Shown here: in pieces, positions 2,370-60,043 of the stretch
Layout: every line of letters begins with the position of its first letter
How positions within the stretch are numbered: the stretch's first letter is position 1
Origin: an uncultured Anaerolineaceae bacterium
Lineage (GTDB): Bacteria; Chloroflexota; Anaerolineae; Anaerolineales; Villigracilaceae
Direction of reading: 5' to 3'
DNA length: 64,000 nt
NCBI GenBank assembly: GCA_964549865.1
Contig: CAZJYB010000002.1
Span: 512 to 64,511, forward strand
Program-made: the position numbers and the translations under genes
The notes under the pieces: model-generated
Told to the model about the DNA's origin: nothing
The model's input: only the letters and a program-made list of their open reading frames with translations
Databases searched by the model: none

Positions 2370-5014
<2,645 letters not shown>

Positions 5015-9250: not shown

Positions 9251-9296
9251 TTGACAGTAAGCTTTTTATGTGCGAGAATTCAGAAAATGAATTCTC
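9251..9296 (+). promoter_or_regulatory. Type-A promoter/operator module: TTGACAG-N13-TGCGAGAATTCAGAAAATGAATTCTC
   Basis: It has a -35 TTGACA, a 17-nt spacer and a -10 GAGAAT. A perfect 8-bp inverted repeat GAGAATTC-N7-GAATTCTC overlaps the -10, the predicted TSS and ATG 9287. The same arrangement recurs at 12394-12439. Confidence 0.6.
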
Positions 9297-12397: not shown

Positions 12398-12439
12398 CAG
12401 GAAATTGCTTCCATGCGAGAATTCAGAAAATGAATTCTC
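12394..12439 (+). promoter_or_regulatory. Type-A promoter/operator module, copy 2, upstream of wzm/wzt set 1
   Basis: It has the same TTGACAG, the same 13-nt spacing and the same 26-nt TGCGAGAATTCAGAAAATGAATTCTC as 9251-9296. Confidence 0.6.
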
Positions 12440-12451
12440 GATCTTGTTGTT

Positions 12452-13324
12452 GTGAAGGATGTTATGGAAATACAATCGTCTGATCAAGAAAATTGGTCTC
12501 TCGTAATTCGCCCGCAACGCGCCTGGTGGGATTTACGTGTGGGTGAATTGTGGCGGTATCGGGACCTGATCTGGTTATTTGTATGGCGTGATTTTGTTGC
12601 TTATTACAAACAGACCATTCTCGGCCCGCTGTGGTACATCATCCAACCAGTGCTGACGACTGTTGTATTTACGATTATCTTCGGAAATATTGCCAAACTT
12701 TCCACCGATGGGTTGCCTCCCTTTTTGTTTTATATGGCCGGAAATATCGTTTGGAGTTATTTTAGCACCTGCCTAGTTACCACGTCTAATACATTCACAG
12801 CTAATGCTGGGATATTTGGAAAGGTATATTTTCCGCGCTTGAGTATGCCTGTTTCTGTGGTGATCTCCAATTTGATCTCGTTTTTCATCCGTCTTGCTAT
12901 ATTTTTGCTCTTCATAGGTTACTTTATATTGACAGGTGCAGACTTTCATCTCACTTGGTGGATTTTAAGCCTGCCACTTCTGGTGGTTATCATGGCCATG
13001 ATGGGGCTCGGGTTCGGTATGATCATTTCCTCGCTTACAACCAAATATCGTGATCTCCAGCAATTGGTGAGCTTCGGTGTTCAACTCCTGATGTATGCCA
13101 CGCCGGTGATTTATCCGCTTTCAAGTATCGAAGGTAGCTGGCGCTGGCTGATTCTGGCAAACCCGATGACTCCCATTGTGGAGGTCTTTCGCTTGGCCTT
13201 TTTTGGGGTAAGCGCGATCGACCCTGTTTCTTTGCTTTATAGCGCCATTTTTACAGTGGTTGTTTTTTTGGCAGGTGCATTGATCTTCAATCACGTTGAA
13301 ACCACCTTTATGGATACGGTTTAA
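12452..13324 (+). CDS. wzm: ABC-2 type polysaccharide exporter permease
   Basis: It has YKQTILGPLWYIIQP and six TM helices, and sits adjacent to the ATPase. The start (GTG 12452 or ATG 12464) is uncertain. Confidence 0.88.
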   Translation: MKDVMEIQSSDQENWSLVIRPQRAWWDLRVGELWRYRDLIWLFVWRDFVAYYKQTILGPLWYIIQPVLTTVVFTIIFGNIAKLSTDGLPPFLFYMAGNIVWSYFSTCLVTTSNTFTANAGIFGKVYFPRLSMPVSVVISNLISFFIRLAIFLLFIGYFILTGADFHLTWWILSLPLLVVIMAMMGLGFGMIISSLTTKYRDLQQLVSFGVQLLMYATPVIYPLSSIEGSWRWLILANPMTPIVEVFRLAFFGVSAIDPVSLLYSAIFTVVVFLAGALIFNHVETTFMDTV

Positions 13325-13328
13325 TAAG

Positions 13329-14636
13329 ATGTCGAACACGGTTATTTCAATTGAAAATGTTTCCAAAAGTTACCAACTGGGTGTGATCGGTACCGGCACT
13401 TTTTACGGTGATTTAAAACGATGGTGGGCAAAACAGCGCGGTCGGCCCGATCCTTATCAGAAAATTGGAGGAGCAGATCACGGCAGTCGTGATGGCGAAA
13501 CGATCTGGGCGCTTAAGGATGTTAATTTTCAGATTCAAGAGGGACAGGCCGTTGGCATCATAGGACGCAATGGAGCAGGTAAAAGTACCTTGCTCAAGAT
13601 CCTTTCAAGAGTAACTGCTCCTACTACAGGTGAAATAAAGGTGAATGGCAGGATCGCCAGCTTATTGGAAGTAGGTACAGGTTTTCACTCAGAACTGACA
13701 GGGCGTGAAAATATTTTTTTGAATGGTGCCATCATGGGGATGGATCGTAATGAGATTCAACGCAAACTGGATGAAATTGTGGATTTTTCAGGGGTGGAAC
13801 AGTTTATTGATACTCCAGTAAAACGCTACTCAAGTGGTATGTATGTACGCCTGGCCTTTGCTGTTGCAGCACATCTCGAGCCAGAGATCCTGATCGTGGA
13901 TGAGGTGTTGGCAGTGGGGGATTCTAACTTTCAGAGGAAGTGTTTAGGAAAAATGAGTGATGTGGCCGAAGGAGGGCGTACAGTTCTCTTTGTTAGTCAT
14001 AATATGTCGGCAATTAATCGTCTCTGTTCACGTGCGGTTTTGTTAAATGCGGGAACAGTAATGGAGGACGGTTCGGCTCTTGAAGTTACTGCCAAATATC
14101 TATCAGGCGCAGGTGAAGAGAGTGGTATACGAATTTGGAATATGGAAGATGCCCCAGGCACTGATGACCTAAGACTTATTTCTGCCAAACTTTTGGGAAC
14201 GGATGGCAAACCTGTCTCAGTTGTCGATGTCCGTGATCAGCTTACTTTACGAATTGAATACTATGTGAACAAACCAGGTTTACGATTCCGCTGTACTTTT
14301 AATATTCATACACAGGGAATTTTGGCGTTTGCTGTCATGGAATCCACCGAGGAGGCGCGTTCTAAGGCGGGCACTTACTATTCTAGTGTGGTTATCCCCC
14401 CACACTTGTTGGCAGAGAGCGAGTATATTGTCGGGGTCTCCATCTTCTCATCTTCAGGCGGCAAGACACGTTTTGTAGCATTGAGGGACGTGATTGGGTT
14501 CCAAGTTTATGACTCAATGATAGGACCATCAGCGCGTGGTGATTATGCCCAAAACTTTGCTGGTATTGTTCGCCCTCTTCTTAACTGGGAAAGTGGCATG
14601 TTGAATGCAGGCTCTCCATCTATTATTGATAATTAA
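13329..14636 (+). CDS. wzt: ABC polysaccharide exporter ATPase with a C-terminal glycan-terminus-binding-type domain
   Basis: It has Walker A (GRNGAGKST), the signature YSSGM and Walker B (ILIVDE). An extra C-terminal domain of about 170 aa is arranged as in Wzt of O8/O9a-type systems. Confidence 0.88.
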   Translation: MSNTVISIENVSKSYQLGVIGTGTFYGDLKRWWAKQRGRPDPYQKIGGADHGSRDGETIWALKDVNFQIQEGQAVGIIGRNGAGKSTLLKILSRVTAPTTGEIKVNGRIASLLEVGTGFHSELTGRENIFLNGAIMGMDRNEIQRKLDEIVDFSGVEQFIDTPVKRYSSGMYVRLAFAVAAHLEPEILIVDEVLAVGDSNFQRKCLGKMSDVAEGGRTVLFVSHNMSAINRLCSRAVLLNAGTVMEDGSALEVTAKYLSGAGEESGIRIWNMEDAPGTDDLRLISAKLLGTDGKPVSVVDVRDQLTLRIEYYVNKPGLRFRCTFNIHTQGILAFAVMESTEEARSKAGTYYSSVVIPPHLLAESEYIVGVSIFSSSGGKTRFVALRDVIGFQVYDSMIGPSARGDYAQNFAGIVRPLLNWESGMLNAGSPSIIDN

Positions 14637-14806
14637 TATAAGAATGGCGATTTTGTGAAAATTTATCCTTTACCAGACCAGAAAATGTATCTTTACTTTG
14701 TTAGGCAAGCCAGCGAGAGCTGGCAAGTAAGGCGATGCTGTAAAAAAATTACAAGCATTGTGTAATCTAAACAAGTTCAAACAGAGAAAATGAGCGAAAT
14801 AATTTG

Positions 14807-15613
14807 ATGAAAGCTTCTTTTAAAAACGAAATATGGCGCTTTCTTTTAGCCGCCAGAACTGCGATTTTCAAACTTTTTCAGATTACTCTTAGAGCAATCA
14901 GAATTGATGCTTTTATTCGCAAGCAAAACTATCATTATGTACCGGACTATTTTGGCAGGGCGGCTCATAAACAAAGGAATATAAGGCTATTACCACAATT
15001 TGGAGAACTGGCGGCTGAAGTTGTCAATACCGGAAGATCATCTCTTTACTATGACCGCTTACACACGATCTATCAGTTAATTCTTCAATTAAATGTTGCT
15101 GTTAAATCCGGGCAAAAGATCAATCTGGCTGAAGTTGGCGTATATAAGGGAGGTACCAGCTATTTTATTGCGGCCCTGGCTCACCGCTTGAAATTGAATA
15201 TAACTCATTGTTGCTTCGACACCTTTGAAGGTCATGCGGCGCAGGATATTGATCTATCTGTAGAAACCTCGCATAAGGCCCGCTATTTTAATGATACAAG
15301 CTACGAATCCGTAAGGGATTATTTAAGTCGCTTTAAAAATGTCGATGTCTATAAGGGTCGCTTTCAAGACACATGCCATTATATACAGGACACGCCAATA
15401 CATTTTGTTCATTTGGATATGGATATCTACGAGCCCACGATATTTGCCTTGAAGTTCTTTGACAAAAGGGTGGTTAACGGTGGGATGATCCTGGTGGACG
15501 ATTATGGATTTGAATCCTGTCCCGGAATCGAGAAAGCAGTTGCAGAGTTTACTTCGGTTAACTCGCAATATTTTGGAATGGCCCTTCTTACCGGTCAATA
15601 TATATTAATATAA
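14807..15613 (+). CDS. Class I SAM-dependent O-methyltransferase, TylF/MycF-like
   Basis: Motifs seen are EVGVYKGGTSYFIA, VHLDMDIYEPT and GGMILVDDY. Confidence 0.7.
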   Translation: MKASFKNEIWRFLLAARTAIFKLFQITLRAIRIDAFIRKQNYHYVPDYFGRAAHKQRNIRLLPQFGELAAEVVNTGRSSLYYDRLHTIYQLILQLNVAVKSGQKINLAEVGVYKGGTSYFIAALAHRLKLNITHCCFDTFEGHAAQDIDLSVETSHKARYFNDTSYESVRDYLSRFKNVDVYKGRFQDTCHYIQDTPIHFVHLDMDIYEPTIFALKFFDKRVVNGGMILVDDYGFESCPGIEKAVAEFTSVNSQYFGMALLTGQYILI

Positions 15614-15641
15614 TTTTAAATAAAAGACTAGGAAACAAATC

Positions 15642-16691
15642 GTGACCAGAGAACTGAAAATCAACAATTTCAACATTTCCGACACGAGTGCCTGTTTTGT
15701 GATCGCTGAGATCGGGCATAATCATCAGGGCAATGTACAAAAGGCTAGGGAATTATTCAAGGCTGCAGCCGAATGTGGCGTCAACGCGGTCAAATTGCAA
15801 AAACGCGACAATAAGGCTTTGTTCACGAAAGCTGCTTACGACAAGCCGTATGAGAATGAGAACAGTTTCGGCCCCACCTACGGTGCACATCGCGAGGCGC
15901 TCGAGTTTGGGCGTACAGAATTCATGGAATTACAAAAGTATGCCAAAGAACTTGGCCTGATCATGTTTTCCACCGCATTCGATATTTCCAGCGCCGATTT
16001 CCTTGCTGAGTTGGATATGCCTGCTTACAAGATCGCATCAGGCGATATCAAAAACACGCCGTTGCTTAAACACGTGGCCAAATTCAGCAAACCCATGATC
16101 ATCAGTACGGGCGGCGCAGATATGGTGGATGTTCAACGCGCGTACGACGTGATTATGCCCCTCAATCAACAGTTGGCGATCTTGCAGTGCACTTCCTCAT
16201 ACCCTGCAGAGCACAAAGATCTAAACCTGCGGGTCATTGAGACCTTTCGCAGGCAATTCAAGGATACGGTTATCGGTCTTTCCGATCACGAGAATGGTAT
16301 TGCTATGGCGGTGGCAGCATATGTCTTGGGTGCGCGTATCATTGAACAACACTTTACGATCAATCATACATGGAAGGGTACGGACCAGGTTTTTTCGCTT
16401 GAACCGATTGGCATGAAAAAACTTGTGCGTGATCTTCGCCACCTTCATGATGCGCTGGGCGATGGCGTCAAGAAGGTATATCCCAATGAAGTAGCGCCGA
16501 TCACAAAAATGAGCAAAAAACTGGTTGCAGCTGGCAGCTTACCGGCAGGCCATAAATTGACCGCCGGCGACCTGGCCGTTAAATCTCCCGGCGATGGTCT
16601 GCATCCTTATGAAATTGATAATGTCATCGGCAAGAGTCTTAAACGAGCACTGATTGAAGACGACGACATCAAGTTCGAGGATCTTGCATGA
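15642..16691 (+). CDS. Ulosonic acid synthase of the NANS type (Neu5Ac-9-P / KDN-9-P synthase-like) with a C-terminal SAF domain
   Basis: It has IAEIGHNHQG. KALFTKAAYDKPYENENSFGPTYGAHREALEF aligns with the NANS-specific segment (..ERPYTSKHSWGKTYGEHKRHLEF). LQCTSSYPAEHKDLNLRVI and HTWKGTDQVFSLEP are also present. Confidence 0.8.
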   Translation: MTRELKINNFNISDTSACFVIAEIGHNHQGNVQKARELFKAAAECGVNAVKLQKRDNKALFTKAAYDKPYENENSFGPTYGAHREALEFGRTEFMELQKYAKELGLIMFSTAFDISSADFLAELDMPAYKIASGDIKNTPLLKHVAKFSKPMIISTGGADMVDVQRAYDVIMPLNQQLAILQCTSSYPAEHKDLNLRVIETFRRQFKDTVIGLSDHENGIAMAVAAYVLGARIIEQHFTINHTWKGTDQVFSLEPIGMKKLVRDLRHLHDALGDGVKKVYPNEVAPITKMSKKLVAAGSLPAGHKLTAGDLAVKSPGDGLHPYEIDNVIGKSLKRALIEDDDIKFEDLA

Positions 16692-18148
16692 TCCCGCAAC
16701 AGATACCAAATTGGATTGCCGGCGAAGAACGTCTCGCGTTATCCAATGAATGGTTTGACAAGCTTAACCCGGCAGATGGAAAACTTCTGACGAAAGCGGC
16801 CCGTTCGCGCGTAGCGGATATCAATGCTTCCGTTGAAACAGCCAAACGTGCATTTCCAGCATGGTCTGAGACGCCTGGGGTGCAGCGAGGACTTATATTG
16901 CACAAGCTTGTTGTAGGGATGCAAAACCATCAGGATGAGATCGCGCATATTGTGGCCGCGGAAACTGGAAAATCCCATAAAGACGCGTTGGGTGAAACTG
17001 GGGCGGCCATTCAGTGTGGTTTATTCTATGCCAGCGAAGGGCAGCGTTTATACGGTCATACCATGACATCCGGTACCGCAAATAAATATGCCATGACGAT
17101 CCGCCAGCCAATCGGGATTGCCGGTCTGATCATTGCCGCGAACACCCCCATCGCGAATGTGGCCTGGAAGGTCTTTCCTGCGCTTGTGTGTGGCAATACT
17201 GCGATATTGAAAGCTTCTGAAGATACGCCTGCCACTGCGTGGATTGTGGGAAAGATTGCCAGGGAAGTCGGTTTGCCCGATGGCGTTTTGAACATTGTGC
17301 ATGGCTTCGGCGAAGAGGCTGGGGCGCCTTTGGTTGGGCATCCGGCGGTAGGGGTTCTTTCATTCACGGGTTCTACAGGGGTGGGACGCATCATCCAGCG
17401 CACTGCGGGCGAAAGGTTTGCACGCGTTTCACTGGAACTTGGTGGTAAGAACGCCTTTGTGGTCTGTGATGATGCCGATCTTGAGAATGCGGCAAAGTGG
17501 GTTTTACTTTCTGCGTTCAGCAATGCCGGCCAGCGTTGTGCCTCTGCCAGCCGTATCATTGTCTTTGATACGGTATATGATAAATTTCGCGATATGCTTG
17601 TGGAAAAGACAGGAAAACTTCGCCTGGGTACTGCAGATGAAGATGACTTCGGACCTGTGATCAACGAAGATCAACTTAACGGCATGGTTTCCGTTTTGGA
17701 GCGCACCCGTAAAAGCGGGGCAAATATTCTTGCTGGTGGAGAGCGTTTGATGGATGCCCTGCATCGCAACGGCTATTACATGGCTCCGACCCTGATGGAT
17801 GGTGTTCAGCCGCATGATGAGATTTCGGAATGTGAACTGTTTGGTCCGGTTGCGATCTTATATCGTGTGAAGGACTTTGAAGAAGCGCTTGCTCTTGCAA
17901 ATGATTCGCCGTATGGGTTGACTGCCAGCATACATACACGCAGTTTACACCGCGCCATGCGGTTTGTGGATAAGGTCCAAACTGGAGTCGCTGTTGTAAA
18001 CGCCGGCACACACGGTTCCGAACCGCATATGCCATTTGGCGGGCGTAAACAATCGGGCAATGGCTCTCGCGAGCCCGGTACAGAGGCGTTAAACATTTAT
18101 TCCGAGTTGAAGGATGTTTACGTCAACATTGACCCCTCCCAGCTATGA
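16688..18148 (+). CDS. NAD(P)-dependent aldehyde dehydrogenase
   Basis: It has the ELGGKNAFVV and NAGQRCASASR catalytic motifs. An ATGA overlap joins it to the upstream gene. Confidence 0.85.
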   Translation: MIPQQIPNWIAGEERLALSNEWFDKLNPADGKLLTKAARSRVADINASVETAKRAFPAWSETPGVQRGLILHKLVVGMQNHQDEIAHIVAAETGKSHKDALGETGAAIQCGLFYASEGQRLYGHTMTSGTANKYAMTIRQPIGIAGLIIAANTPIANVAWKVFPALVCGNTAILKASEDTPATAWIVGKIAREVGLPDGVLNIVHGFGEEAGAPLVGHPAVGVLSFTGSTGVGRIIQRTAGERFARVSLELGGKNAFVVCDDADLENAAKWVLLSAFSNAGQRCASASRIIVFDTVYDKFRDMLVEKTGKLRLGTADEDDFGPVINEDQLNGMVSVLERTRKSGANILAGGERLMDALHRNGYYMAPTLMDGVQPHDEISECELFGPVAILYRVKDFEEALALANDSPYGLTASIHTRSLHRAMRFVDKVQTGVAVVNAGTHGSEPHMPFGGRKQSGNGSREPGTEALNIYSELKDVYVNIDPSQL

Positions 18149-18894
18149 ACAGTAAATCGCCTTCCATAGTTGCTTTAATACCGGCTCGTTCAGGCTCCAA
18201 ACGCGTGGTGGACAAGAATATTCGTCCGCTGGCTGGGCATCCTGCAATCGCTTACACCATCTCGGCAGCCGTGCAGAGCAATATATTTTCTGCAGTGATC
18301 GTCTCCACAGACTCTGAAGAATATGCAAAAGTATCGCGCGAATATGGAGCAGAAGTGCCCTTCCTGCGGCCCGATGGAATGGCGGGTGATATTTCGCCTG
18401 ATATTGAATGGCTCGATTTCACGCTGACCAAACTCAGGGAAATGGGACGCGAATATGAGTGCTTTGCCCTGCTACGCCCCACCAGCCCATTTCGTTTGCC
18501 TGAGACCATTCAACGGGCGTGGAAGGCATTTCTTGCAGAAGACGGTGTCGACTCGCTGAGGGCTGTGGAAAAATGTCATGAGCATCCCGGCAAAATGTGG
18601 GTCTTGCGCGGCAATCGCATGACACCGTTGCTGCCCTTTTCCGGAGATCACGCCTGGCACAGTACGCCCTATCAGGCATTGCCCGAGATCTATATACAAA
18701 ATGCAAGCCTTGAAATCGCATGGTCGCGCGTTGTGCTGGATGATCACACAATTGCCGGAAATGTCATCATGCCATTCCTTACCAGGGATTATGAGGGTTT
18801 TGACCTGAATCATCCGTATGATTGGAATTTGGCTGAAGAGTTTGTAAAGGCCGGCCAGGCCAGGTTGCCAGAGATCGGCATGAAAGATAAATAG
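18145..18894 (+). CDS. Acylneuraminate/ulosonate cytidylyltransferase (CMP-sugar synthetase family)
   Basis: It has the N-terminal motif ALIPARSGSKRVVDKNIRPLAG, plus LRPTSPFR. An ATGA overlap joins it to the ALDH gene. Confidence 0.82.
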   Translation: MNSKSPSIVALIPARSGSKRVVDKNIRPLAGHPAIAYTISAAVQSNIFSAVIVSTDSEEYAKVSREYGAEVPFLRPDGMAGDISPDIEWLDFTLTKLREMGREYECFALLRPTSPFRLPETIQRAWKAFLAEDGVDSLRAVEKCHEHPGKMWVLRGNRMTPLLPFSGDHAWHSTPYQALPEIYIQNASLEIAWSRVVLDDHTIAGNVIMPFLTRDYEGFDLNHPYDWNLAEEFVKAGQARLPEIGMKDK

Positions 18895-18920
18895 CTTTTG
18901 TTGTTAATAAAAAGGAAACC

Positions 18921-20903
18921 ATGGTAGATATAAAGCTCATTCCATTTGAAGAATTTAAGCGAATACGTGAATCTCAAATTGACAGGTATCAGAAGCTTGC
19001 CATCATTGCAGATATGAATCGCGCCAATACCCTGGCTGAGGTCAAACGCGCGGGCTCCGGCCATCTTGGCTCATCGTTCAGCGCGATGGATCTTGTCACC
19101 TGGCTGTATCATGAGGAAATGAACGTCCTCAAAGTCGGCTTTAGCAGCCCGGACCGCGATATTTATTTCTCGTCCAAGGGTCATGATGTCCCGGGCCTGT
19201 ATGCCACCATGTATTCTCTGGGTGTATTATCGGAGGAGAAACTTCTCAAATTACGCCGGCTGGGCGGCCTCGACGGTCATCCCGATCTTAACATTCCCGG
19301 TATAGAGGCAAATTCCGGTTCGTTGGGAATGGGCATCTCAAAAGGGCGCGGCATGGCCTGGGCCAAGAAACACTTTGGGCATGATGGGCAGGTATATGTC
19401 CTGACCGGAGACGGGGAGTGGCAGGAGGGCCAGAACTACGAAGCGCTTCACTCCACAGTTCAGCAAAAGATCGATAATCTGACTGTCATTGTGGATGACA
19501 ACAAGGTGCAATCCGACAAGCTGGTGAATGAGATAACGAGTCTTGGCGACATCGAAACCAAATATCGTGCCTTTGGCTGGCATGTTATTCGTGTCGACGG
19601 GCATGACTATCGACAAATTGAAAAGGCGTTTGCCGAAGCGCGCCACATTAGAGGGAAGCCGAAGATCATACTTGCAGATACGATCAAGGGGCGCGGGATA
19701 TCTTTCATGGAACACCCTGTTGCACTTGAAACAGGCCACGGGCTTTATCCATGGCATTCCGGCGCACCGGACGACGCGTCGTTTGACGCAGGCTATAACG
19801 AGCTGATCGAACGGGTTGATCGCCTCCTGTTAAGCTTTGGCCTGACGCGCTTGCAATTTAAAGACGTTGCGCCCGAGGAACATCGTCCAAGCGCGGCTGT
19901 GTTGGCCGGTGAACCGCTTAGTCAGGCCGCACAGGAAAAGATCTCTGCAAAGGTAACAGATGAATATGTTGCGCGCGCATATGGGCAGGCCCTTGTAGAG
20001 ATTGCCGCCCGGCGAAAGGATATTGTGGTGTTGGATGCCGATCTTTCTTCGGATTGTAAAGTGCGCGATTTTGAAAATGCCTACCCTGAGCGATTTATCG
20101 AAAATGGTATTGCCGAGCAGGATATGGTTTCAATGGCTGGAGGGCTGGCGAGCCAGGGTTTATTGCCTGTGGTGAATTCCTTTGCCAGTTTCCTAGCCTC
20201 ACGTGCCAATGAGCAGATCTATAACAACGCCAGTGAGAAGACAAAGATCATCTACGCTTTGCATTATGCCGGGTTGATCCCGGCCGGGCCGGGCAAATCC
20301 CACCAATCCCTGCGCGATATTTCACTCTTTGCGGCCCTGCCGAATTGCACGATCCTGCAGCCTTGCAATGCCGATGAAACCAAAATGGTCGTGGAATATG
20401 GTGTGGAAGAAGCGAAAGAAAATGTGGCGATGCGATTTATCATTGGTCCTTCCCCGCGCAAGATCCAATTGCCAAAAGGCTATAAGCTCACATTTGGCAA
20501 AGGTGTGGCTCTTGCCGAGGGCCGCGATGCGATCATGTTTGCGTACGGGCCGGTGATGCTGCACGAGGCTTTGCTTGCAAACGAACTATTGGCCGAACGA
20601 GGCCTTGGCCTGAAAGTTATCAATCTCCCCTGGCTCAATCGTGTGGATGCCACATGGCTCGAAGAGATGATTGATCCGTATGAACTGGTCTTTGTCTTGG
20701 AGGATCATCATCCTGCCGGCGCGTTAACAGACCACATACTTGAATTACTGGCTTCTGGCAATAATCAACTGCTGGCCAAACGGCGCCTGGTCCGTTTCGC
20801 GGTGGAAGGCTGGCCGGCTTGTGGCACGCCTGCGCAAGCCCTGGCCCATCACCAACTGGATGCAGTATCCCTGGCAAAAAGGGTCATGAAATATTGTGAT
20901 TAG
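18921..20903 (+). CDS. Transketolase, single-chain (N- and C-terminal halves fused)
   Basis: Motifs seen are GHLGSSFSAMDL, the ThDP motif GDGEWQEGQNYEAL, the pyrimidine-binding half (IAEQDMVSMAGGLA) and a C-terminal domain. Confidence 0.85.
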   Translation: MVDIKLIPFEEFKRIRESQIDRYQKLAIIADMNRANTLAEVKRAGSGHLGSSFSAMDLVTWLYHEEMNVLKVGFSSPDRDIYFSSKGHDVPGLYATMYSLGVLSEEKLLKLRRLGGLDGHPDLNIPGIEANSGSLGMGISKGRGMAWAKKHFGHDGQVYVLTGDGEWQEGQNYEALHSTVQQKIDNLTVIVDDNKVQSDKLVNEITSLGDIETKYRAFGWHVIRVDGHDYRQIEKAFAEARHIRGKPKIILADTIKGRGISFMEHPVALETGHGLYPWHSGAPDDASFDAGYNELIERVDRLLLSFGLTRLQFKDVAPEEHRPSAAVLAGEPLSQAAQEKISAKVTDEYVARAYGQALVEIAARRKDIVVLDADLSSDCKVRDFENAYPERFIENGIAEQDMVSMAGGLASQGLLPVVNSFASFLASRANEQIYNNASEKTKIIYALHYAGLIPAGPGKSHQSLRDISLFAALPNCTILQPCNADETKMVVEYGVEEAKENVAMRFIIGPSPRKIQLPKGYKLTFGKGVALAEGRDAIMFAYGPVMLHEALLANELLAERGLGLKVINLPWLNRVDATWLEEMIDPYELVFVLEDHHPAGALTDHILELLASGNNQLLAKRRLVRFAVEGWPACGTPAQALAHHQLDAVSLAKRVMKYCD

Positions 20904-20905
20904 AT

Positions 20906-22315
20906 ATGAGTGATGAAAAGGTAGGCATCCCTTTGCACGGAAAGATGGCCGCCCGCGCGTTGCATTCGGCCTCTTTTCGCGAGTGTTTGGGTGCGAATGG
21001 TTTGAAACCGGTCTATTTTCTTAGCCCCCATTATTTCCGTTCCTTCGATTTCGACCCCAACCAGTATTTTGAGCTTCGAATAGAAGATTATGATCAGTAT
21101 TTCCGGAAGCATGCCTTATTGCAGAATTTAAAAATGCTCAGGCGCTTTGTCGTTCGGACGGAAACAACGGATCTTCGTTTTCGTGAAATGATAGCAAGCA
21201 AACTCTTCAATGCCTCCATCTGGGGTATTGGCGCATCCCTTTTCTACATCGATATCGTACGCCGTATCCCTAATATTGGGAATCTACTCTTGTGGCTCGA
21301 GACCACTTTTTATGCGACCCATGCTCATGATCGATCCTTCGAGGAACAGGGAATCGACTGTGTTTTGACCCCAGGCATGGGGAATTTCAACTTTTGGAAC
21401 GAAGGCAATTTTGCCCTTGAGGCGCAAAGATCGAACATCCCGGCTTTTGCAGCGATAACGAATTATGACAATATTGTGAACATGGGATTTCGCGGTTTTA
21501 CCCCGACCTGTCTTGCTGTCTGGAGTCGGCAAATGGCGGATGAGGCCATCAAATTGCACGGTTTGCCAGCCCGTAAAATTGAAATTACTGGCCCGGTGCA
21601 ATATGACAGGTTCATGCAGCCTTTACCTCTGGATCGTGATGCCTTTCTAAGATCGATTGGTCTTGACCCCAACCGCAAGACGATCTTTTATGCGGGTGGA
21701 GTCAATATCACCCGTTATTTTGAGATATACCGTTTATTTGTTGAACAGAAAGAAAGTATTTCGTCCGAACCCTTTAATCTAATTGTACGACCAATGCCGC
21801 ATATTAAATTATTAGGCTCCCCAGGCTGGCAGGTCCTGGAGAAGCTGTTTCCTGGAGCCGGAGTGTATATCTCGAATCCCGGTTCCATCGATGCAAGTGG
21901 TGATCGTACCGATGAATTTCGCCTTGATCTTTCCTTTGAAGAAGGCACTGATGAATTAAGTTATTTGTTGCGTTACAGTGACGTGTTGATCAATAGTTTT
22001 TCAACGATGAGTCTCGAAGCTGCCATTTGTGATTTGCCGGCCATCCATTTTGGATATGATTCTTACACATTTGGACACAACTTTAATACAACATCGGCTT
22101 TTCAACAGCGCATGACCCATAACCGCAGAAAGCTGCGCCTGCAGGCATCAAAAGTGGCCAAAAACGAATCGGAACTGGTGATGTTTGTCGATCAATACTT
22201 GAACGATCGCACCCTGGACCAGGGAGCTCGACACGAGTATGCAGTTTCGGAATGCGGTGAACTCGACGGGCAGGCAGGCATTCGCCTGATGGAAATGATC
22301 AAAAGCAGGCTGTAA
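20906..22315 (+). CDS. Unassigned GT-B-like protein, candidate transferase for the CMP-activated sugar
   Basis: It starts 2 nt after the transketolase gene. It shows a generic GT-B pattern (KIEITGPVQYDRF ... KTIFYAGG ... SDVLINSFSTMSLEAAICDLPAI). I did not recognise a family. Confidence 0.3.
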   Translation: MSDEKVGIPLHGKMAARALHSASFRECLGANGLKPVYFLSPHYFRSFDFDPNQYFELRIEDYDQYFRKHALLQNLKMLRRFVVRTETTDLRFREMIASKLFNASIWGIGASLFYIDIVRRIPNIGNLLLWLETTFYATHAHDRSFEEQGIDCVLTPGMGNFNFWNEGNFALEAQRSNIPAFAAITNYDNIVNMGFRGFTPTCLAVWSRQMADEAIKLHGLPARKIEITGPVQYDRFMQPLPLDRDAFLRSIGLDPNRKTIFYAGGVNITRYFEIYRLFVEQKESISSEPFNLIVRPMPHIKLLGSPGWQVLEKLFPGAGVYISNPGSIDASGDRTDEFRLDLSFEEGTDELSYLLRYSDVLINSFSTMSLEAAICDLPAIHFGYDSYTFGHNFNTTSAFQQRMTHNRRKLRLQASKVAKNESELVMFVDQYLNDRTLDQGARHEYAVSECGELDGQAGIRLMEMIKSRL

Positions 22316-22355
22316 CGAAATCAAACGATCTGTATAAATAATATAAGGTCTTAAA

Positions 22356-23111
22356 ATGAAAACACTTTACCCCTGGCTTAACCCTATTTTGATGCGAATA
22401 TTGCGCTGGCTCTATGCTATCTGGCGGAAGATCAACATTCGCCAGACTAATCCACGATTATGGTCGAACGATGAACTGGCAAAATTTGCGCCGCTTTTTT
22501 CTGGAAAGGTCATCAATGTTTCCGGAGGAAGGGATAACGATAAGGAGGGCAGGTCATATAAGGATTATTTTGTTAATGCGGAGTCGTATACTTTGTCGAA
22601 CTATATTCTTGAATTCAAGGATTCAAATGCCTATAACGAGATGCAATTGGATCTCTCCGGACCATTATTAATTGATTCCAACCTAGCCGGGAAGTTTGAA
22701 ACGGTCCTGACGCACACTGTCCTGGAGCATATTTATGATGTGCACCAGGCCGTCGAAAACCTGTGTAAATTGTCGAACGATATTGTGATCACCATCATAC
22801 CTTTTCTGCAGGAATTTCATCATGTGCCTGAGCAATATCATGACTATTGGCGTATTTCACCATATTCACTGGCTTTGTTATTCAAGCAACATGGCTTTCA
22901 GACCCTTTACGTGAACTGGAATGATGACCCCATGGGTAACGTATATATTTTTCATATTGCTTCGCGCCAACCTGAAAGATGGGATGATCAAATACGACCT
23001 GCTGTTATTACCCATGGACCTGGATCTTCACGGGTCTTGATACACCCGGAGCAGGATGGTTCGATGGGTAGTACTGCTGTTGCCTTTCGCGATCTTTATA
23101 TACTGGAGTGA
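22356..23111 (+). CDS. Class I SAM-dependent methyltransferase-like
   Basis: It has VINVSGG and VLTHTVLEHIYDVHQAVENL (the Methyltransf_11-like post-motif region). Confidence 0.55.
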   Translation: MKTLYPWLNPILMRILRWLYAIWRKINIRQTNPRLWSNDELAKFAPLFSGKVINVSGGRDNDKEGRSYKDYFVNAESYTLSNYILEFKDSNAYNEMQLDLSGPLLIDSNLAGKFETVLTHTVLEHIYDVHQAVENLCKLSNDIVITIIPFLQEFHHVPEQYHDYWRISPYSLALLFKQHGFQTLYVNWNDDPMGNVYIFHIASRQPERWDDQIRPAVITHGPGSSRVLIHPEQDGSMGSTAVAFRDLYILE

Positions 23112-23118
23112 TTTTAGG

Positions 23119-23406
23119 ATGCAGAGTATTCGTCGCGTAATTGAGGCTGTTGGTCAACAGGTATGTTTGCGGATGAAATGGTTCCGTGCAATCAGGTATT
23201 CGCCGTCATCATCCAAGATTGGCTGGAATGCCATTGTTCTTGGCAACGTGCAGATTGGCGAGCAATCTACAATACAGGATCACGTTGTTTTGGATGGCAC
23301 ACGTATGGGAAATGATGCTGAATCTATTAAAATTGGTGCACGCACCAGGATCGAGTGCGGAGCGCAAATCCACAGTTGGGGTGGAGAAATTACAATTGCT
23401 CCCTGA
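23119..23406 (+). CDS. Hexapeptide-repeat acyltransferase, N-terminal fragment (the gene appears split)
   Basis: The LbH repeats (VLGNVQIGEQSTIQDHVVLDG..IKIGARTRIECGAQIHSWGGEITIAP) end at a TGA. The beta-helix resumes in another frame at 23439. Confidence 0.5.
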   Translation: MQSIRRVIEAVGQQVCLRMKWFRAIRYSPSSSKIGWNAIVLGNVQIGEQSTIQDHVVLDGTRMGNDAESIKIGARTRIECGAQIHSWGGEITIAP

Positions 23407-23438
23407 ACCCTTATTGCCTGATCTAGGGTACGGGAGGG

Positions 23439-24413
23439 GTGAAAATTGGAAATAATGTGCGCATTGCGGCGAATACGATCATTGCGGCCTCCATGCATAA
23501 GTTTGAACGGATTGATGTCACTATTATTAGCCAGGGGTTCGAAGCCAGGGGCATTACGATTGGGAATGATACCTGGATCGGCGCGAGTTGTCGTATTTTG
23601 GATGGTGTAAGAATCGGCAAGGGTGCTATTTTAGCTGCGGGTGCTGTAGTTACAAAAGATGTGCCTGCTTATACAATTGTGGGAGGAGTGCCTGCGAAGG
23701 TGATCCGCCAGCGGAAAAAACACATGAAAAATCACATCCCCGAAAAGTCAGCTGTCTGGAAAAAAAGCTATATTAGCTATCGTCGTCTATGGCTTGATCA
23801 ATGCCTTAAGGCGTTTTCGACTGAAATGCGCGGTCTTGTAGTTGACCTCGGGGGTAAGCGTGAAAAGAAGCGCGGCACCTTTCTTCCTCCACATGAGCAG
23901 GCAGATGCGTGGTGGTATGTCAACCTCGATCTTAATACTCATCCTGATATTTTTGCGGATGTTGGAGATGTTCCGCTGGATGCACAGAGCATAGATTGCA
24001 TAATATGTACAGAAGTATTAGAACATTTACCTGAACCAAAAGCCTGTGTCAATGAAATGTACCGGCTTTTGCGTAAAGGCGGGATTGCTTTTGCGTCTGC
24101 TCCATTTATGTACCCCGTCCATGCAGACCCTTTTGATTTTCAGCGCTTTACTGAAGATGGGTTGCGGAAACTTTTTAGCGATTTTGCCTCAGTTGAAGTA
24201 TTTCAAATGGGGAGTTACCCAGGTACCATGGGAATGCTGATTGAACTTGGAATAGATGGAATTCAAGGCAGGTCTTTTCTGCCCAAAATTTTGAGGCGTT
24301 CTTTGCGTTTGATTTCTCGTTGGCTATGTTCTTACGATCTTTCTCGTGCAAGCCAGAACAATACTACGTGGCAAAAATTTACCACTGGGTATTTTATGAA
24401 AGTTATTAGGTAG
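23439..24413 (+). CDS. C-terminal half of the hexapeptide acyltransferase fused to a class I SAM methyltransferase domain
   Basis: The acyltransferase part has [65 protein letters not shown]. The methyltransferase part has VVDLGG and [27 protein letters not shown]. Confidence 0.6.
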
Positions 24414-24441
24414 ATATTATGATGCGACTCAATAAATTTGG

Positions 24442-25263
24442 ATGTGGAAGATGAATGATCAAAGGTTAAATCACGACGGCAATCGCCGCATTGAAAATGG
24501 ACGATTGGTTTACTTTCATAAAACGGCCGATCAGGGATATTGGGAGAATCTTTGGGAGCAAGAATTTGACCCGGCTTCTTACGAGCCTTTTCGGGCCGGT
24601 AAATTATATAATTTTGACAGGCCATTCAAACGCCATTTGCCAAAGGATGGGCTGATTCTCGAAGCCGGATGCGGGCCCGCCCAGTTGGTTGTTGCACTGG
24701 ATGCCAACGGGTATAACTGTATTGGTTTGGACTATGCAATTCACGCCATGCGTAAGGCCCGGCAAATAGTTGGATCGTTGCGGCTTGTCTCCGGGGATTT
24801 GACAGCGCTTGGCATTTCAAACGATGCTTTCGATGCGATCATCTCGATTGGCGTTGTGGAACACCGTCGCTCTGGCCCAGAAGTTTTTCTATATGAAATG
24901 CGTCGTATTTTGAAACCTGACGGCTTATTAATGATATCCGTGCCTTATTTCAACCCTTTGCGCCAATGGCGCGCGAGCCGTGGAGCATACCAGGATGATG
25001 TCAGCGGGTTGGATTTTTATCAGTACGCCTTCACGCGCAGGGAATTCTGTAAGATTTTGGAGGATGTGGGTTATGAGATCGAAACCACCTATTCCTATTC
25101 GTATCAACATAGTCTATCTCAAGAGCTCCGCTGGTTGAAGACAGTTCATCCTGTTTTGCGGGGGTTCGTTTTGAGATTTAGTAAATACATTCCCTACGTG
25201 AATTCGGAACTCGGACATATGTTGATGGTTGTAGTGCGGAAGAAAATTTCAACATCACTATAA
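24442..25263 (+). CDS. Class I SAM-dependent methyltransferase
   Basis: Motifs seen are ILEAGCGPAQ, FDAIISIGVVEH and ILKPDGLLMISVP. An alternative start is ATG 24451. Confidence 0.75.
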   Translation: MWKMNDQRLNHDGNRRIENGRLVYFHKTADQGYWENLWEQEFDPASYEPFRAGKLYNFDRPFKRHLPKDGLILEAGCGPAQLVVALDANGYNCIGLDYAIHAMRKARQIVGSLRLVSGDLTALGISNDAFDAIISIGVVEHRRSGPEVFLYEMRRILKPDGLLMISVPYFNPLRQWRASRGAYQDDVSGLDFYQYAFTRREFCKILEDVGYEIETTYSYSYQHSLSQELRWLKTVHPVLRGFVLRFSKYIPYVNSELGHMLMVVVRKKISTSL

Positions 25264-25347
25264 ATAATGGATTATTAATATCGGTCAGGTTCGTTTTGCG
25301 CAAATTGTCTTTCCATCAGTGTCAGAATATTTTGAGATTATTCTAAA

Positions 25348-26316
25348 ATGAAAATTGGTTTTCACAAGGCAGTAGCTGACCTGTACGCTGCCATCGCAGG
25401 AACATTCACATCTGCTGACCTGTCCATTTTCCATGAATTCGATCCGCCTCCAACCGGGGGAGGGCATCAGTTTTTACGCGCTTTTTGGAAGGAGGCCGAG
25501 TCGCGGGGCTTGCAGATCGAGAACAATACAATATCACCCACTACACGCGCTTGCTTGATGAATTCCTTTAATTTTAATTACAAACGGCTTCTAAGGATAA
25601 AACGCGAGTCAGTGTTATACATCCACCGCGTGGATGGCCCAGTAGATTATTATCGCGGGCGGAATGATGGCGTGGACCGGCAGATTTGGGAAATGAATCA
25701 AAAGGTTGCAGATCGAACTATTTTTCAATCCCGCTACAGTCTCGAAAAGCATCTGGAGTTTGGAATGCAATTTCGTGAGCCGGTCATTATTTTGAACGCA
25801 GCGGATCCACAAATTTTCCATGCACGTGGAAAGGCTCCCTTTTCTCGCGAAAGAAAAATCCGTTTGATTGCTTCGAGCTGGTCCGACAATGCGAACAAAG
25901 GCGCGTCCGTGTATCAATGGCTGGATGAGCACCTGGATTGGGATCGTTTTGATTTCACCTTTGTTGGCCGCAGTCCAGTTGAATTTAATAATATTCAAAT
26001 GATTCCAGCGGTTGATTCATTGCACATGGCTGACCTGTTTCGAAACCATGATATTTATATAACTGCCAGTCGAAATGATCCGTGTTCGAATTCGTTGATC
26101 GAAGCGCTTACCTGCGGTTTGCCGGCGTTGCATCTCCAAAGTGGTGGTCATGCCGAAATCGTGAAACAGGCCGGGGCCGGGTTTGAAACGGCGGAGCAAA
26201 TCCCTGTTATGTTGGATCGTCTTATAGACGAGTATGAGCTTAAGCAGAAAAAAATTTCCATTCCTTCGCTTCATGAAGTTAGCGAGCTTTATCTAAAAAC
26301 TTTAGGATTGGTGTAA
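25348..26316 (+). CDS. Glycosyltransferase (GT4-like C-terminal domain)
   Basis: Motifs seen are IYITASRNDPCSNSLIEALTCGLPAL and GGHAEIV. Confidence 0.6.
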   Translation: MKIGFHKAVADLYAAIAGTFTSADLSIFHEFDPPPTGGGHQFLRAFWKEAESRGLQIENNTISPTTRACLMNSFNFNYKRLLRIKRESVLYIHRVDGPVDYYRGRNDGVDRQIWEMNQKVADRTIFQSRYSLEKHLEFGMQFREPVIILNAADPQIFHARGKAPFSRERKIRLIASSWSDNANKGASVYQWLDEHLDWDRFDFTFVGRSPVEFNNIQMIPAVDSLHMADLFRNHDIYITASRNDPCSNSLIEALTCGLPALHLQSGGHAEIVKQAGAGFETAEQIPVMLDRLIDEYELKQKKISIPSLHEVSELYLKTLGLV

Positions 26317-26323
26317 TTCTCGT

Positions 26324-28173: not shown

Positions 28174-28186
28174 CGTCGGTTCCATT

Positions 28187-29326: not shown

Positions 29327-29335
29327 GAAATCATC

Positions 29336-38795: not shown

Positions 38796-38822
38796 ATATT
38801 TGTTATTTAATCAAACAAACTT

Positions 38823-54373: not shown

Positions 54374-54382
54374 GTAAAGTAT

Positions 54383-60035: not shown

Positions 60036-60043
60036 AAAAAAAC

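Follow-up and report, generated by a model that had tools for sequence, protein, structure and literature searches.

Five genes lie together on the + strand of the window (the whole 64-kb stretch of DNA analyzed here): (i) a synthase gene with NeuB and SAF domains and a GTG start (15642-16691; PF03102, E = 4.6e-79, and PF08666); (ii) an aldehyde dehydrogenase (ALDH) gene (16688-18148; PF00171, E = 3e-149); (iii) a predicted CMP-ulosonic acid synthetase gene (18145-18894; CTP_transf_3, PF02348); (iv) a transketolase (TK)-like gene (18921-20903; Transketolase_N, Transket_pyr, and Transketolase_C); and (v) a gene for a GT-B-fold protein (20906-22315), which has no Pfam match. The coordinates in the earlier note match the open reading frame list exactly, the ATGA overlaps that it described at 16688-16691 and 18145-18148 are seen by direct reading of the letters, its gaps of 26 nt and 2 nt agree with the ORF ends, and the peptide motifs that it quoted were all located in the ALDH and synthase translations. 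The unit is embedded in a co-directional glycan cluster of roughly 44 kb. A gene for a TylF-type SAM O-methyltransferase (14804-15613, + strand; PF05711, E = 3.3e-18) ends 28 nt upstream of the synthase gene, and is itself preceded by Wzm/Wzt ABC exporter genes (12452-14636, + strand; PF01061, and PF00005 together with PF14524, the Wzt C-terminal carbohydrate-binding domain). A promoter/terminator scan returned 22 promoter-like sites (20.1 expected) and 9 terminator-like sites (13.5 expected).

The synthase is predicted to be of the NANS type (animal type, acting on sugar phosphates) rather than of the classic NeuB type, as had been proposed from its motifs (KALFTK...ALEF at residue 58, LQCTSSYP at 181, LNLRVI at 194, and HTWKGTDQVFSLEP at 242). 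It matches a reconstructed human NANS sequence with 41% identity and 283 bits, as against ~144 bits for Neisseria meningitidis NeuB, and in a profile search it falls under the NCBIfam cut-offs for both NeuB (309 vs. 400) and PseI (241 vs. 340). Its catalytic position reads SGD, not SGE; eukaryal and archaeal synthases carry an E134D change at this position (PMC8208679). A KdsC-type phosphatase gene adjoining the synthase gene in relatives likewise speaks for this assignment. The acceptor would most simply be mannose-6-P. The product of 18145-18894 is a putative CMP-ulosonic acid synthetase of the acylneuraminate cytidylyltransferase family; its closest NCBIfam model is PseF (127 bits, under the cut-off), and the KdsB models give just 30-40 bits. 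The likely product is a CMP-activated ulosonic acid, as the earlier note proposed. The ALDH has its ELGGK and GQRC motifs at residues 250 and 281, and its top NCBIfam models are 2,5-dioxovalerate/alpha-ketoglutarate semialdehyde dehydrogenases (417 bits, under the cut-off of 750). It is proposed to be an NAD(P)-dependent enzyme that converts a terminal aldehyde on the sugar into a carboxylate.

The TK-like protein is predicted to be a divergent ThDP-dependent enzyme with the architecture of human transketolase (hTK) and an altered pocket for the substrate tail. Its score is under every NCBIfam TK cut-off (404 vs. 488), and its top PDB match is hTK (223 bits). All ThDP and catalytic residues are retained, the equivalents of hTK His37, Lys75, His77, His110, Asp155, Asn185, Lys244, His258, and Glu366 being invariant among 79 family members. 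Canonical substrate-binding positions, on the other hand, are changed (hTK numbering): Arg318 is lost, Ser345 is replaced by Asp and Asp424 by Pro in all 79 members, and His416 is replaced by Tyr in 77 of them. We know of no characterized transketolase with this Asp/Tyr/Pro signature. Three arginines (R382, R505, and R513) are newly invariant in the same 79 members. Since four canonical substrate-binding residues are replaced family-wide, the enzyme is not a housekeeping transketolase. The hydroxyl read by hTK Asp424 would be the ring oxygen in a pyranose ulosonate.

Relatives of the TK-like protein are found in 397 GTDB species representatives. Among the 50 well-flanked loci (23 close and 27 distant, with 5 kb or more available on either side), the TK gene is colinear with a synthase gene in 46 and with a CMP-synthetase gene in 48. 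Nearly all of these relatives, which belong to Chloroflexota, Acidobacteriota, Desulfobacterota, Planctomycetota, and other groups, keep the genes for synthase, ALDH, CMP-synthetase, and TK as one colinear set. The neighborhood is thus conserved, its order being the same in six or more phyla at 57-83% identity, and this adjacency bears out the view of the TK and ALDH as dedicated pathway enzymes.

The full cassette encodes a NANS-type synthase, a KdsC-type phosphatase, an SDR, the ALDH, the CMP-synthetase, the TK-like enzyme, and a GT-B transferase. Except in one clade of Anaerolineales, phosphatase and SDR genes are found between those for synthase and ALDH. This arrangement is best read as ancestral and that of the window as a reduced derivative. 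The absence of a phosphatase, emphasized in the earlier note, is therefore true of the window but not of the ancestral cassette. A Pfam scan of the main non-overlapping ORFs of at least 150 aa in the window gave no NeuC/Epimerase_2, sugar kinase, HAD phosphatase, or classical SDR, and the HAD and SDR of relatives, used as tblastn queries, had no match in the 64 kb; both genes are likewise absent from 22 of the 23 closely related Anaerolineales loci. The HAD protein of relatives scores 112.5 against a KdsC-subfamily cut-off of 107 and matches, in addition, the model of the Bacteroides thetaiotaomicron KDN-9-P phosphatase. The named models closest to the SDR (gluconate 5-dehydrogenase, KduD, mannonate oxidoreductase, and sorbitol dehydrogenase, all under their family cut-offs) describe enzymes whose site of oxidation in sugar acids or polyols is the penultimate carbon. 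Residue switches specific to cassettes with or without SDR/HAD number none in the TK, none in the CMP-synthetase, one in the synthase, and two, both conservative, in the ALDH, which was counted in favor of the same chemistry in both forms.

ALDH genes are present in all 23 close loci and in 15 of the 27 distant ones. In the Bacteroidota loci L053, L063, and L065, a class-III aminotransferase of the glutamate-semialdehyde-aminomutase type takes the place of the ALDH, and its PDB relatives include sugar C-6' aminotransferases. Because of this exchange, the aldehyde would seem to be located on the sugar itself. Loci of Caldilineales have SDR and TK, with neither ALDH nor aminotransferase, and one locus (L081) has synthase, CMP-synthetase, and TK only.

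The product of 20906-22315 is probably the transferase for the CMP-sugar, in line with the role first suggested for it. It has a partial NCBIfam match to the BFO_1060 glycosyltransferase family of Tannerella NulO transferases (51.6 bits vs. a cut-off of 200), and its AF2 model (pLDDT 84) finds GT-B proteins as top Foldseek matches (UDP-GlcNAc 2-epimerases, BshA, and MshA; E ~1e-9, TM 0.5-0.6). The gene is present in 18 of the 23 close loci, and in distant loci the gene following TK likewise matches BFO_1060/TIGR04396. The TylF-type methyltransferase probably decorates the sugar as an optional member of the module, a homolog being encoded directly 5' of the synthase gene in L001, L002, and 7 of the 23 close loci. 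The sugar is probably incorporated into, or caps, the polymer exported by Wzm/Wzt; L002 has the same Wzm/Wzt arrangement, and L001 has a Wzx-type flippase instead.

In the best model, a tentative one, the cassette would make a CMP-activated 3-deoxy-2-ulosonic acid with a remodeled far end: a nonulosonate-9-P would lose C8-C9 to the TK-like enzyme, be oxidized by the ALDH to a Dha-like heptulosaric acid, and then be activated with CMP and transferred by the GT-B protein. Gene content and conservation are observed here, whereas we infer the substrates and the sequence in which the enzymes act. From PEP and a hexose-6-phosphate of central metabolism, in the simplest case mannose-6-P, the synthase would form a nonulosonate-9-phosphate of the KDN-9-P type. 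A phosphatase, for which the cassettes of most phyla have a gene and the window has none, would free the C9 hydroxyl. The SDR could then oxidize the C8 hydroxyl, converting the glycerol-like tail into a terminal ketol (HOCH2-CO-CHOH-) in a reaction of the type carried out by KduD and gluconate 5-dehydrogenase. With this ketol as donor, the TK-like enzyme would cleave C7-C8 and remove the two-carbon unit (C8-C9), leaving a C7 aldehyde on the pyranose; by our own reasoning, C7 and C6 of KDN and Neu5Ac, read from C9, are D-threo, as TK donors require. The ALDH would turn the aldehyde into a carboxylate, giving a Dha-like 3-deoxy-hept-2-ulosaric acid, and in Bacteroidota the aminotransferase would give a 7-amino sugar instead. 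Finally, the cytidylyltransferase would form the CMP-sugar, and the GT-B protein would transfer the sugar to a glycan exported by Wzm/Wzt, possibly with O-methylation of the sugar by the TylF-type enzyme.

The main weakness of this model is that the window has no SDR. In the Anaerolineales lineage of the window, phosphatase and SDR steps would have to come from outside the cassette. In a metagenome scan seeded with the SDR, its 80 closest relatives included 27 loci of at least 9 kb that could be judged; all 27 have the SDR inside a synthase-(HAD)-SDR-(ALDH)-CMP-synthetase-(TK) cassette, and a supply in trans is unsupported because none of them holds a stand-alone copy. For Caldilineales and L081, the model works only with unlinked enzymes or an SDR-mediated reduction.

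The B. thetaiotaomicron KDN pathway, which we take to consist of BT1714 (KDN-9-P synthase), BT1713 (a KdsC-family KDN-9-P phosphatase), and a CMP-KDN synthetase, and the animal NANS/NANP/CMAS pathway resemble the cassette in joining a NANS-type synthase to a CMP-synthetase with no need for nucleotide-sugar precursor genes, and the former also in the phosphatase that adjoins the synthase in most relatives. These KDN and Neu5Ac pathways have no counterpart of its TK-like ThDP enzyme, of its SDR, or of its ALDH (elsewhere an aminotransferase), and in the window the cassette has no phosphatase. In the Kdo8N pathway of Shewanella, the alcohol dehydrogenase KdnB and the aminotransferase KdnA modify the terminal carbon of Kdo. 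There, too, the distal carbon of an ulosonic acid is remodeled via an aldehyde, and the Bacteroidota variant similarly pairs a dehydrogenase with an aminotransferase; however, the cassette has an SDR in place of an Fe-ADH, a class-III GSA-aminomutase-like transaminase, and a NeuB/NANS-type rather than a KdsA synthase. To our knowledge, Kdo8N synthesis involves neither a TK nor a carboxylate branch. ThDP machinery kept within a remodeled substrate pocket is also seen in the sulfo-TK SqwGH and in apulose-4-phosphate transketolase, both of which act on nonstandard ketols, but these are catabolic and split into two subunits, whereas the cassette enzyme is a single chain of 660 aa in a biosynthetic CMP-sugar cassette. 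For the SDR, KduD and gluconate 5-dehydrogenase, which are likewise catabolic and make such ketols on sugar acids, are the nearest penultimate-carbon oxidizers. A further precedent comes from EpaB and AciE, adh_short_C2 SDRs of NulO clusters implicated in a change at C8, although these give 8-epimers with no subsequent C-C cleavage (PMC12053666).

The predicted product, a 3-deoxy-2-ulosaric acid of seven carbons to be activated with CMP, would belong to the class of Dha. Dha (3-deoxy-D-lyxo-hept-2-ulosaric acid) occurs in plant RG-II, prasinophyte scales, and the LPS of Rhizobiaceae. The isomer predicted here, again by our own reasoning, would be L-arabino rather than D-lyxo, from mannose-6-P via a NeuB-type condensation. 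A further difference is that Dha has one carbon less than Kdo, while the TK takes off two. The literature found on Dha does not address its biosynthesis in bacteria.

Somewhat unlikely, in our view, is that the TK acts before the synthase, cleaving or building an unusual sugar (phosphate) to serve as aldose acceptor, and that the SDR, once condensation and dephosphorylation have taken place, oxidizes the terminal CH2OH to an aldehyde, as KdnB does, for the ALDH or aminotransferase to convert to a carboxylate or amine on an unshortened chain. TK, synthase, and CMP-synthetase do form a near-invariant core, to which L081 is confined, and the pairing of the SDR with an aminotransferase or an ALDH follows Kdo8N logic. 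Of all components, the TK varies least from one cassette type to another; its conservation across the Bacteroidota variant (about 60% vs. about 36% for the synthase) would also fit an enzyme acting on a common central metabolite, and the invariant R382, R505, and R513 may still bind phosphate and could be compatible with a phosphorylated substrate. Yet this scheme leaves the ALDH with no aldehyde in the class of the window (ALDH + TK, no SDR; 22 of 23 loci), the cassette has no conserved gene for an isomerase, a kinase, or any other enzyme of precursor supply, and the aldose phosphates of a normal TK are already central metabolites, while the canonical substrate-binding residues are replaced. 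The corresponding hypothesis of the earlier note accordingly divides: the Bacteroidota aminotransferase indirectly supports the proposal that the ALDH forms an ulosaric acid from a sugar aldehyde, but a TK building the aldose-phosphate acceptor makes a less coherent scheme than one placed after the synthase.

It is improbable that the TK-like enzyme serves to cleave a ketose, yielding free glycolaldehyde and the aldose for the synthase, with the ALDH (elsewhere aminotransferase or SDR) only clearing the toxic by-product and pulling the equilibrium. Though this is the sole scheme that closes the pathway with the four enzymes of the window and no extra redox enzyme, SDR and ALDH together, as in most cassettes, would be redundant, and an aminotransferase dedicated to glycolaldehyde is hard to rationalize in a sugar cassette. 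It also conflicts with known TK-like enzymes, which hand the C2 unit to an acceptor aldose instead of releasing it. Very improbable is the second hypothesis of the earlier note, in which the sugar is acylated with a C2 glycolyl unit provided by TK and ALDH, on the pattern of quinocarcin-type pathways. The residues holding the dihydroxyethyl-ThDP intermediate are conserved, and Tannerella has nonulosonic acids with N-glycolyl and N-glyceroyl groups (PMC5420450), but no version of the cassette conserves a carrier protein, E2-like/lipoyl partner, ligase, N-acyltransferase, or Pse/Leg-type (amino-sugar) precursor genes. A housekeeping TK and ALDH merely located in a glycan locus, for which nothing speaks beyond generic family names, is effectively refuted, because the colinear set recurs in dozens of independent genomes, at the identities given above, with translationally coupled genes and a TK stripped of its canonical substrate-binding residues.

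No paper describing the cassette was found in the literature searched, and its product is probably an undescribed sugar.

The unit at 15642-22315 is very likely a conserved cassette devoted to a CMP-ulosonic acid that has yet to be described, with a transketolase-like (TK-like) enzyme and an aldehyde dehydrogenase (ALDH) as pathway enzymes. It encodes, all on the forward strand, a synthase with NeuB (PF03102, E = 4.6e-79) and SAF domains (15642-16691), the ALDH (16688-18148), a CTP_transf_3 cytidylyltransferase (PF02348; CMP-synthetase, 18145-18894), and a three-domain transketolase (18921-20903), as assigned by Pfam, followed by a 469-aa GT-B ORF that has no Pfam match (20906-22315). Both ATGA start/stop overlaps claimed in an earlier note can be read directly in the sequence, the claimed gaps of 26 and 2 nt agree with the ORF coordinates, and all of the peptide motifs it quoted were found in the proteins. 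The five-gene unit is real, yet it belongs to a longer, operon-like run of genes: the gene 28 nt upstream of the synthase ORF encodes a TylF-type methyltransferase, and Pfam analysis of the main non-overlapping ORFs of at least 150 aa throughout the window reveals a single long surface-glycan cluster, nearly all of whose genes are co-directional. This cluster holds two Wzm/Wzt exporters, a WbpB/D/E-like trio, 6-deoxyhexose genes, and many GT2, GT4, and GT-C transferases and methyltransferases. A promoter/terminator scan of the window gave no signal above background and was uninformative.

By domain content, an ABC-2 permease (Wzm; PF01061, 12452-13324, +) and a Wzt ATPase with a C-terminal carbohydrate-binding domain (PF00005 and PF14524, 13296-14636, +) are predicted to provide ABC-transporter-dependent (Wzm/Wzt) glycan assembly in the cassette's cluster. 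Behind a second pair (ABC2_membrane, 57381-58226; ABC_tran and Wzt_C, 58676-59965) comes a 556-aa protein whose Capsule_synth domain is of the KpsC/KpsS type (60008-61678). Since this family comprises beta-Kdo transferases, an ulosonic acid may also be used in a second glycan encoded in the window. Three PMT_2/PMT-type GT-C transferases held by one cluster, which depend on polyprenyl-phosphate sugars (5039-6880, 41754-44303, and 44317-45960), suggest extracytoplasmic glycosylation steps. Four large ORFs inside the glycan cluster (731, 697, 855, and 549 aa; 36600-40916, 48230-50797, and 2370-4019) have no Pfam match. Paralogous HTH_24/MarR-type regulators (9251-9769 and 54356-54853) each head a sub-cluster, and the same HTH gene also precedes the WbpB/D/E-like trio in two relatives' loci, L001 and L002. 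Two fusion proteins are encoded, a hexapeptide acyltransferase-SAM methyltransferase (23439-24413) and a methyltransferase-GT2 (52832-54265, -), the latter being one of just two long minus-strand ORFs in the window. In the transferase and methyltransferase genes on its flanks (12000-16000 and 22000-30000) the GC content is 42-47%, and over the ALDH-to-TK core itself (16000-20000) it is 50-52%, near the values at the window's ends; the variable glycan genes may have arrived independently of the conserved cassette.

A NeuB-family PEP-condensing synthase encoded together with a CTP_transf_3 enzyme places the unit among NeuB-type ulosonic acid clusters. However, canonical bacterial Neu5Ac, Pse, and Leg pathways combine precursor enzymes with a synthase that exceeds its equivalog cut-off, and the window has neither. 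The synthase scores under the NCBI equivalog cut-offs for NeuB (309 vs. 400) and PseI (241 vs. 340), and no canonical precursor set (NeuC; PseBCHG or LegBCHG) was found in the 64 kb. Among the main ORFs of at least 150 aa, Pfam likewise detected no NeuC, sugar kinase, or HAD phosphatase, in agreement with the earlier note, and no classical SDR. The proposal that the synthase is NANS-like rather than NeuB-like was borne out, as it shares 41% identity (283 bits) with human NANS, vs. 144 bits with N. meningitidis NeuB and 136-154 bits for the best scores to solved bacterial NeuB/PseI structures. Its SGx motif also has the Asp that is typical of eukaryotes (SGD at residue 133, where bacterial NeuB has SGE); the E134D change has been highlighted for eukaryal and archaeal synthases (PMC8208679). 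By sequence, therefore, the enzyme is assigned to the NANS/KDN-9-P synthase type, and a phosphorylated substrate is predicted. Hundreds of its homologues, at 73-83% identity, are annotated merely as "sialic acid synthase."

The TK-like protein is closest to the short human-type transketolases (223 bits), and scores under every NCBIfam transketolase cut-off. In an alignment of 79 family members with human transketolase (hTK), the ThDP, Mg, and catalytic residues are all invariant (equivalents of hTK H37, H77, H110, D155, N185, H258, and E366). In canonical enzymes, R318, S345, H416, and R474 bind the sugar phosphate, and D424 reads the C2 hydroxyl of the acceptor. Four substrate-tail residues of canonical transketolases are replaced in the family: S345 is Asp (79/79), H416 is Tyr (77/79), D424 is Pro (79/79), and the R318 equivalent is lost, being absent or variable. 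The R474 equivalent is at best moved by one position, possibly corresponding to R513, and two arginines, R382 and R505, are newly invariant. The protein represents a distinct TK-like family rather than the pentose-phosphate enzyme EC 2.2.1.1.

When the TK-like protein was used as query against one genome per GTDB species, relatives were present in 397 species. The best 80 loci come from Anaerolineales, Caldilineales, Acidobacteriota, Desulfobacterota (including the cultured strain NaphS2), Gemmatimonadota, Planctomycetota, Bacteroidota, and Gaiellales; the Anaerolineales relatives reach 81-83% identity. L001 and L002, on independent contigs, share the order methyltransferase, synthase, ALDH, CMP-synthetase, TK, and an unassigned 434-469-aa ORF, one within a Wzx-type cluster and the other within a Wzm/Wzt cluster. 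By tblastn with the window proteins, a colinear set is found in nearly all sufficiently long loci, and the counts that follow cover the 50 loci flanked by 5 kb or more on both sides. The 23 close Anaerolineales loci (TK identity of at least 68%) contain the synthase in 22, the CMP-synthetase and ALDH in all 23, the GT-B ORF in 18, the SDR in one, and the HAD in none. The 27 more distant loci contain the synthase in 24, the CMP-synthetase in 25, ALDH in 15, a GT-B ORF in five (23-29% identity), the HAD in 19, and the SDR in 24. The CMP-synthetase gene is thus adjacent in 48 of 50 loci. The synthase-ALDH-CMP-synthetase-TK adjacency, whose conservation in relatives the earlier note had set as a test, is kept in nearly all adequately long loci, and TK, with its replaced substrate-binding residues, is no housekeeping enzyme; the idea of a dedicated cassette therefore stands on these points. 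Chance adjacency of TK and ALDH is ruled out by the same conservation data.

The catalytic motifs of the ALDH are intact, and it has no close characterized relative. Its nearest models are alpha-ketoglutarate semialdehyde/2,5-dioxovalerate dehydrogenase (417 bits vs. a cut-off of 750-770), so that it is best described, from model scores, as a general member of the ALDH superfamily rather than an equivalog of that enzyme. The cytidylyltransferase belongs to the acylneuraminate/PseF type and not to KdsB, with PseF as its nearest model. The GT-B fold of the 469-aa ORF is confirmed by Foldseek and by a confident AF2 model (pLDDT 84). The ORF matches the BFO_1060/Tanf_01245 family only in part (residues 199-273 alone, 51.6 bits vs. 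a cut-off of 200), and in distant loci the gene following TK likewise matches BFO_1060/TIGR04396 transferase families. Tannerella members of the BFO_1060 family have been implicated genetically, through knock-outs, as nonulosonic acid transferases (PMC5420450). A NeuC-like hydrolyzing epimerase, which would make the HAD needless, was set aside as the leading reading of this ORF, short of exclusion. UDP-GlcNAc 2-epimerases rank first in Foldseek, but at approximately 12% identity and a TM of approximately 0.5-0.6; GT4 transferases score as well, the Epimerase_2 Pfam model does not match, and the sequence match is to a nonulosonic acid transferase family.

In the distant loci, HAD and SDR genes are inserted between the synthase and ALDH. 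The HAD is small, passes the cut-off of the KdsC subfamily (TIGR01670), and also matches the Bacteroides KDN-9-P phosphatase model. The SDR is classical (approximately 270 aa), and among named proteins it comes closest to gluconate 5-dehydrogenase, KduD, mannonate oxidoreductase, and sorbitol dehydrogenase. When metagenomes were scanned with this SDR as seed, 27 loci of at least 9 kb were obtained, all 27 with the SDR inside the cassette in the order synthase-(HAD)-SDR-(ALDH)-CMP-synthetase-(TK), which implies that the canonical cassette has six or seven genes. One Anaerolineales lineage, to which the window belongs, lost the adjacent HAD-SDR pair: a KdsC/NANP-type phosphatase is absent from the window and from 23/23 close loci and is present in 19/27 distant loci. 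Neither SDR nor HAD was found elsewhere in the window (tblastn; Pfam of main ORFs of at least 150 aa), and the copies returned by the metagenome scan, whose seed was the closest SDR, were all cassette-embedded. Supply of both activities in trans in the reduced lineage is no more than an assumption. Group-specific residue switches between the two cassette forms number zero in TK and CMP-synthetase, one in the synthase, and two, both conservative, in ALDH. Because conserved positions show almost no lineage-specific change, the four retained enzymes very probably perform the same chemistry with or without the HAD-SDR pair.

The gene beside TK also varies. In the Bacteroidota loci L053, L063, and L065, an orthologous TK (approximately 60% identity) occurs with SDR, HAD, a shorter NeuB, and CMP-synthetase, and a class-III aminotransferase of the glutamate-semialdehyde-aminomutase type adjoins TK in the place of ALDH. 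Such a swap is expected if both enzymes act on one sugar-borne aldehyde, yielding a carboxylate or an amine, and for the Bacteroidota form the predicted sugar bears an amino group instead of a carboxy group. The Kdo8N pathway is a known analog of aldehyde-to-amine sugar remodeling. The likeness is in logic only, as Kdo8N formation uses a KdnB-type Fe-alcohol dehydrogenase and the KdnA aminotransferase on Kdo, and neither family occurs in the window or its relatives. The gene order in the Bacteroidota loci (L053, 5153-13924) is a weak Epimerase_2-like ORF, CMP-synthetase, TK, aminotransferase, SDR, HAD, short NeuB without a SAF domain, and metallophosphoesterase. Caldilineales loci keep SDR and TK and have neither ALDH nor aminotransferase; the loci that lack both of the latter are L034, L040, L045-L047, L060, and L067 (Caldilineales and other Chloroflexota MAGs) and L081, which retains synthase, CMP-synthetase, and TK alone. 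One or two GDSL esterase genes lie between CMP-synthetase and TK in L034 and L040. Decoration enzymes flank the cassettes (FkbM-/TylF-type methyltransferases, sulfotransferase, acetyl- and carbamoyl-transferases, GDSL esterases, B12-radical SAM), and no precursor-supply genes were seen among the flanking genes inspected in relatives' loci. Tailoring inserts in other lineages, namely a B12-binding radical SAM protein, a carbamoyltransferase, and a sulfotransferase (L033, 5586-7004; L044, 3795-5699; L034, 691-1530), suggest a family of decorated products. Two close relatives, L026 and L016 (Ca. Villigracilis), have no orthologous NANS-type synthase beside ALDH; L016 has a NeuB-family match at 34% identity only, and in L026 the synthase position is taken by a genuine UDP-GlcNAc 2-epimerase gene (PF02350, 343 bits; 3597-4676).

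The most coherent reading, which uses each enzyme once and which we hold tentatively, is truncation of a nonulosonate after the synthase step, and we infer its substrates and order of steps as follows. PEP and a hexose-6-phosphate would be condensed to a nonulosonate-9-phosphate, from which the phosphatase would strip the phosphate. The SDR would then oxidize the C8 hydroxyl to a terminal ketol, the reaction type of KduD and gluconate 5-dehydrogenase; the SDRs EpaB and AciE have been implicated in a C8 change of nonulosonic acids (PMC12053666). With this ketol as donor, the TK-like enzyme would cleave C7-C8, and the resulting C7 aldehyde would be converted by ALDH or the aminotransferase prior to CMP activation and transfer. 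By our own reasoning, KDN viewed from its C9 end has at C7 and C6 the D-threo configuration that transketolase donors need. The pyranose ring oxygen would here stand in for the hydroxyl read by hTK D424, and the change from Asp to Pro would then make sense. A mannose-6-phosphate start would, again by our reasoning, give 3-deoxy-L-arabino-hept-2-ulosaric acid, which is Dha-like, yet not Dha. The main argument against truncation is that the window's class has TK and ALDH without the SDR, an unlinked copy of which was not found.

Each alternative to truncation has its own gap. TK could instead act upstream of the synthase in precursor supply, with SDR and ALDH oxidizing C9 without truncation; this agrees with how well TK is conserved and with a core of TK, synthase, and CMP-synthetase, but it leaves the ALDH of the window's class without an aldehyde and offers no rationale for the remodeled TK pocket, and we consider it unlikely. 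If ALDH merely removed glycolaldehyde, a four-gene pathway would close; such scavenging is very improbable, as it hardly accounts for the common SDR and ALDH pairing or the aminotransferase variant. The earlier proposal that TK and ALDH supply a glycolyl unit found no supporting genes in the cassettes and is scarcely credible. Two further roles for TK were rejected: decarboxylation of the ulosonic acid as a 2-keto acid would destroy the anomeric center that CMP activation needs, and extension of a C9 aldehyde to a C11 sugar would put TK in competition with ALDH or the aminotransferase for that aldehyde.

Ulosonic acids, such as sialic, pseudaminic, and legionaminic acids and Kdo, are central to recognition at cell surfaces, and the range of biosynthetic logic known for them is narrow. 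The conserved cassette, present in several phyla, extends this range by a ThDP carboligase/lyase and an enzyme that processes aldehydes, which implies an undescribed family of CMP-sugars. No paper turned up by full-text literature searches describes a transketolase linked to a NeuB/NANS-type synthase, and none treats the biosynthesis of Dha in bacteria. In SugarBase (bioRxiv 2026), longer-chain CMP-ulosonic acids are reported from Magnetospirillum, and nothing matches the cassette; with this preprint, non-C9 CMP-ulosonic acids are only now coming to detection. It is a real possibility, though the less likely one, that the cassette holds categorically new transketolase chemistry. It is similarly possible, though not probable, that a TK-family enzyme trims the C2 tail of a sialic-acid-type sugar, giving CMP-activated C7 ulosaric acids (with ALDH) or 7-amino-heptulosonic acids (with the aminotransferase) that decorate surface glycans of many uncultured environmental phyla. 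If truncation is correct, a biosynthetic pathway would for the first time be seen to cleave a C-C bond of a nonulosonic acid, and bacteria would have their first route to Dha-like sugars; the transketolase family would gain a new function, and there would be a template for heptulosaric acids such as Dha, whose biosynthesis is still unknown. The small size of the cassette makes heterologous expression feasible and the question directly testable. Among the carriers are those Anaerolineales (Ca. Villigracilis and relatives) that dominate activated sludge and sediments, so that the product could shape the chemistry of the floc and biofilm matrix.
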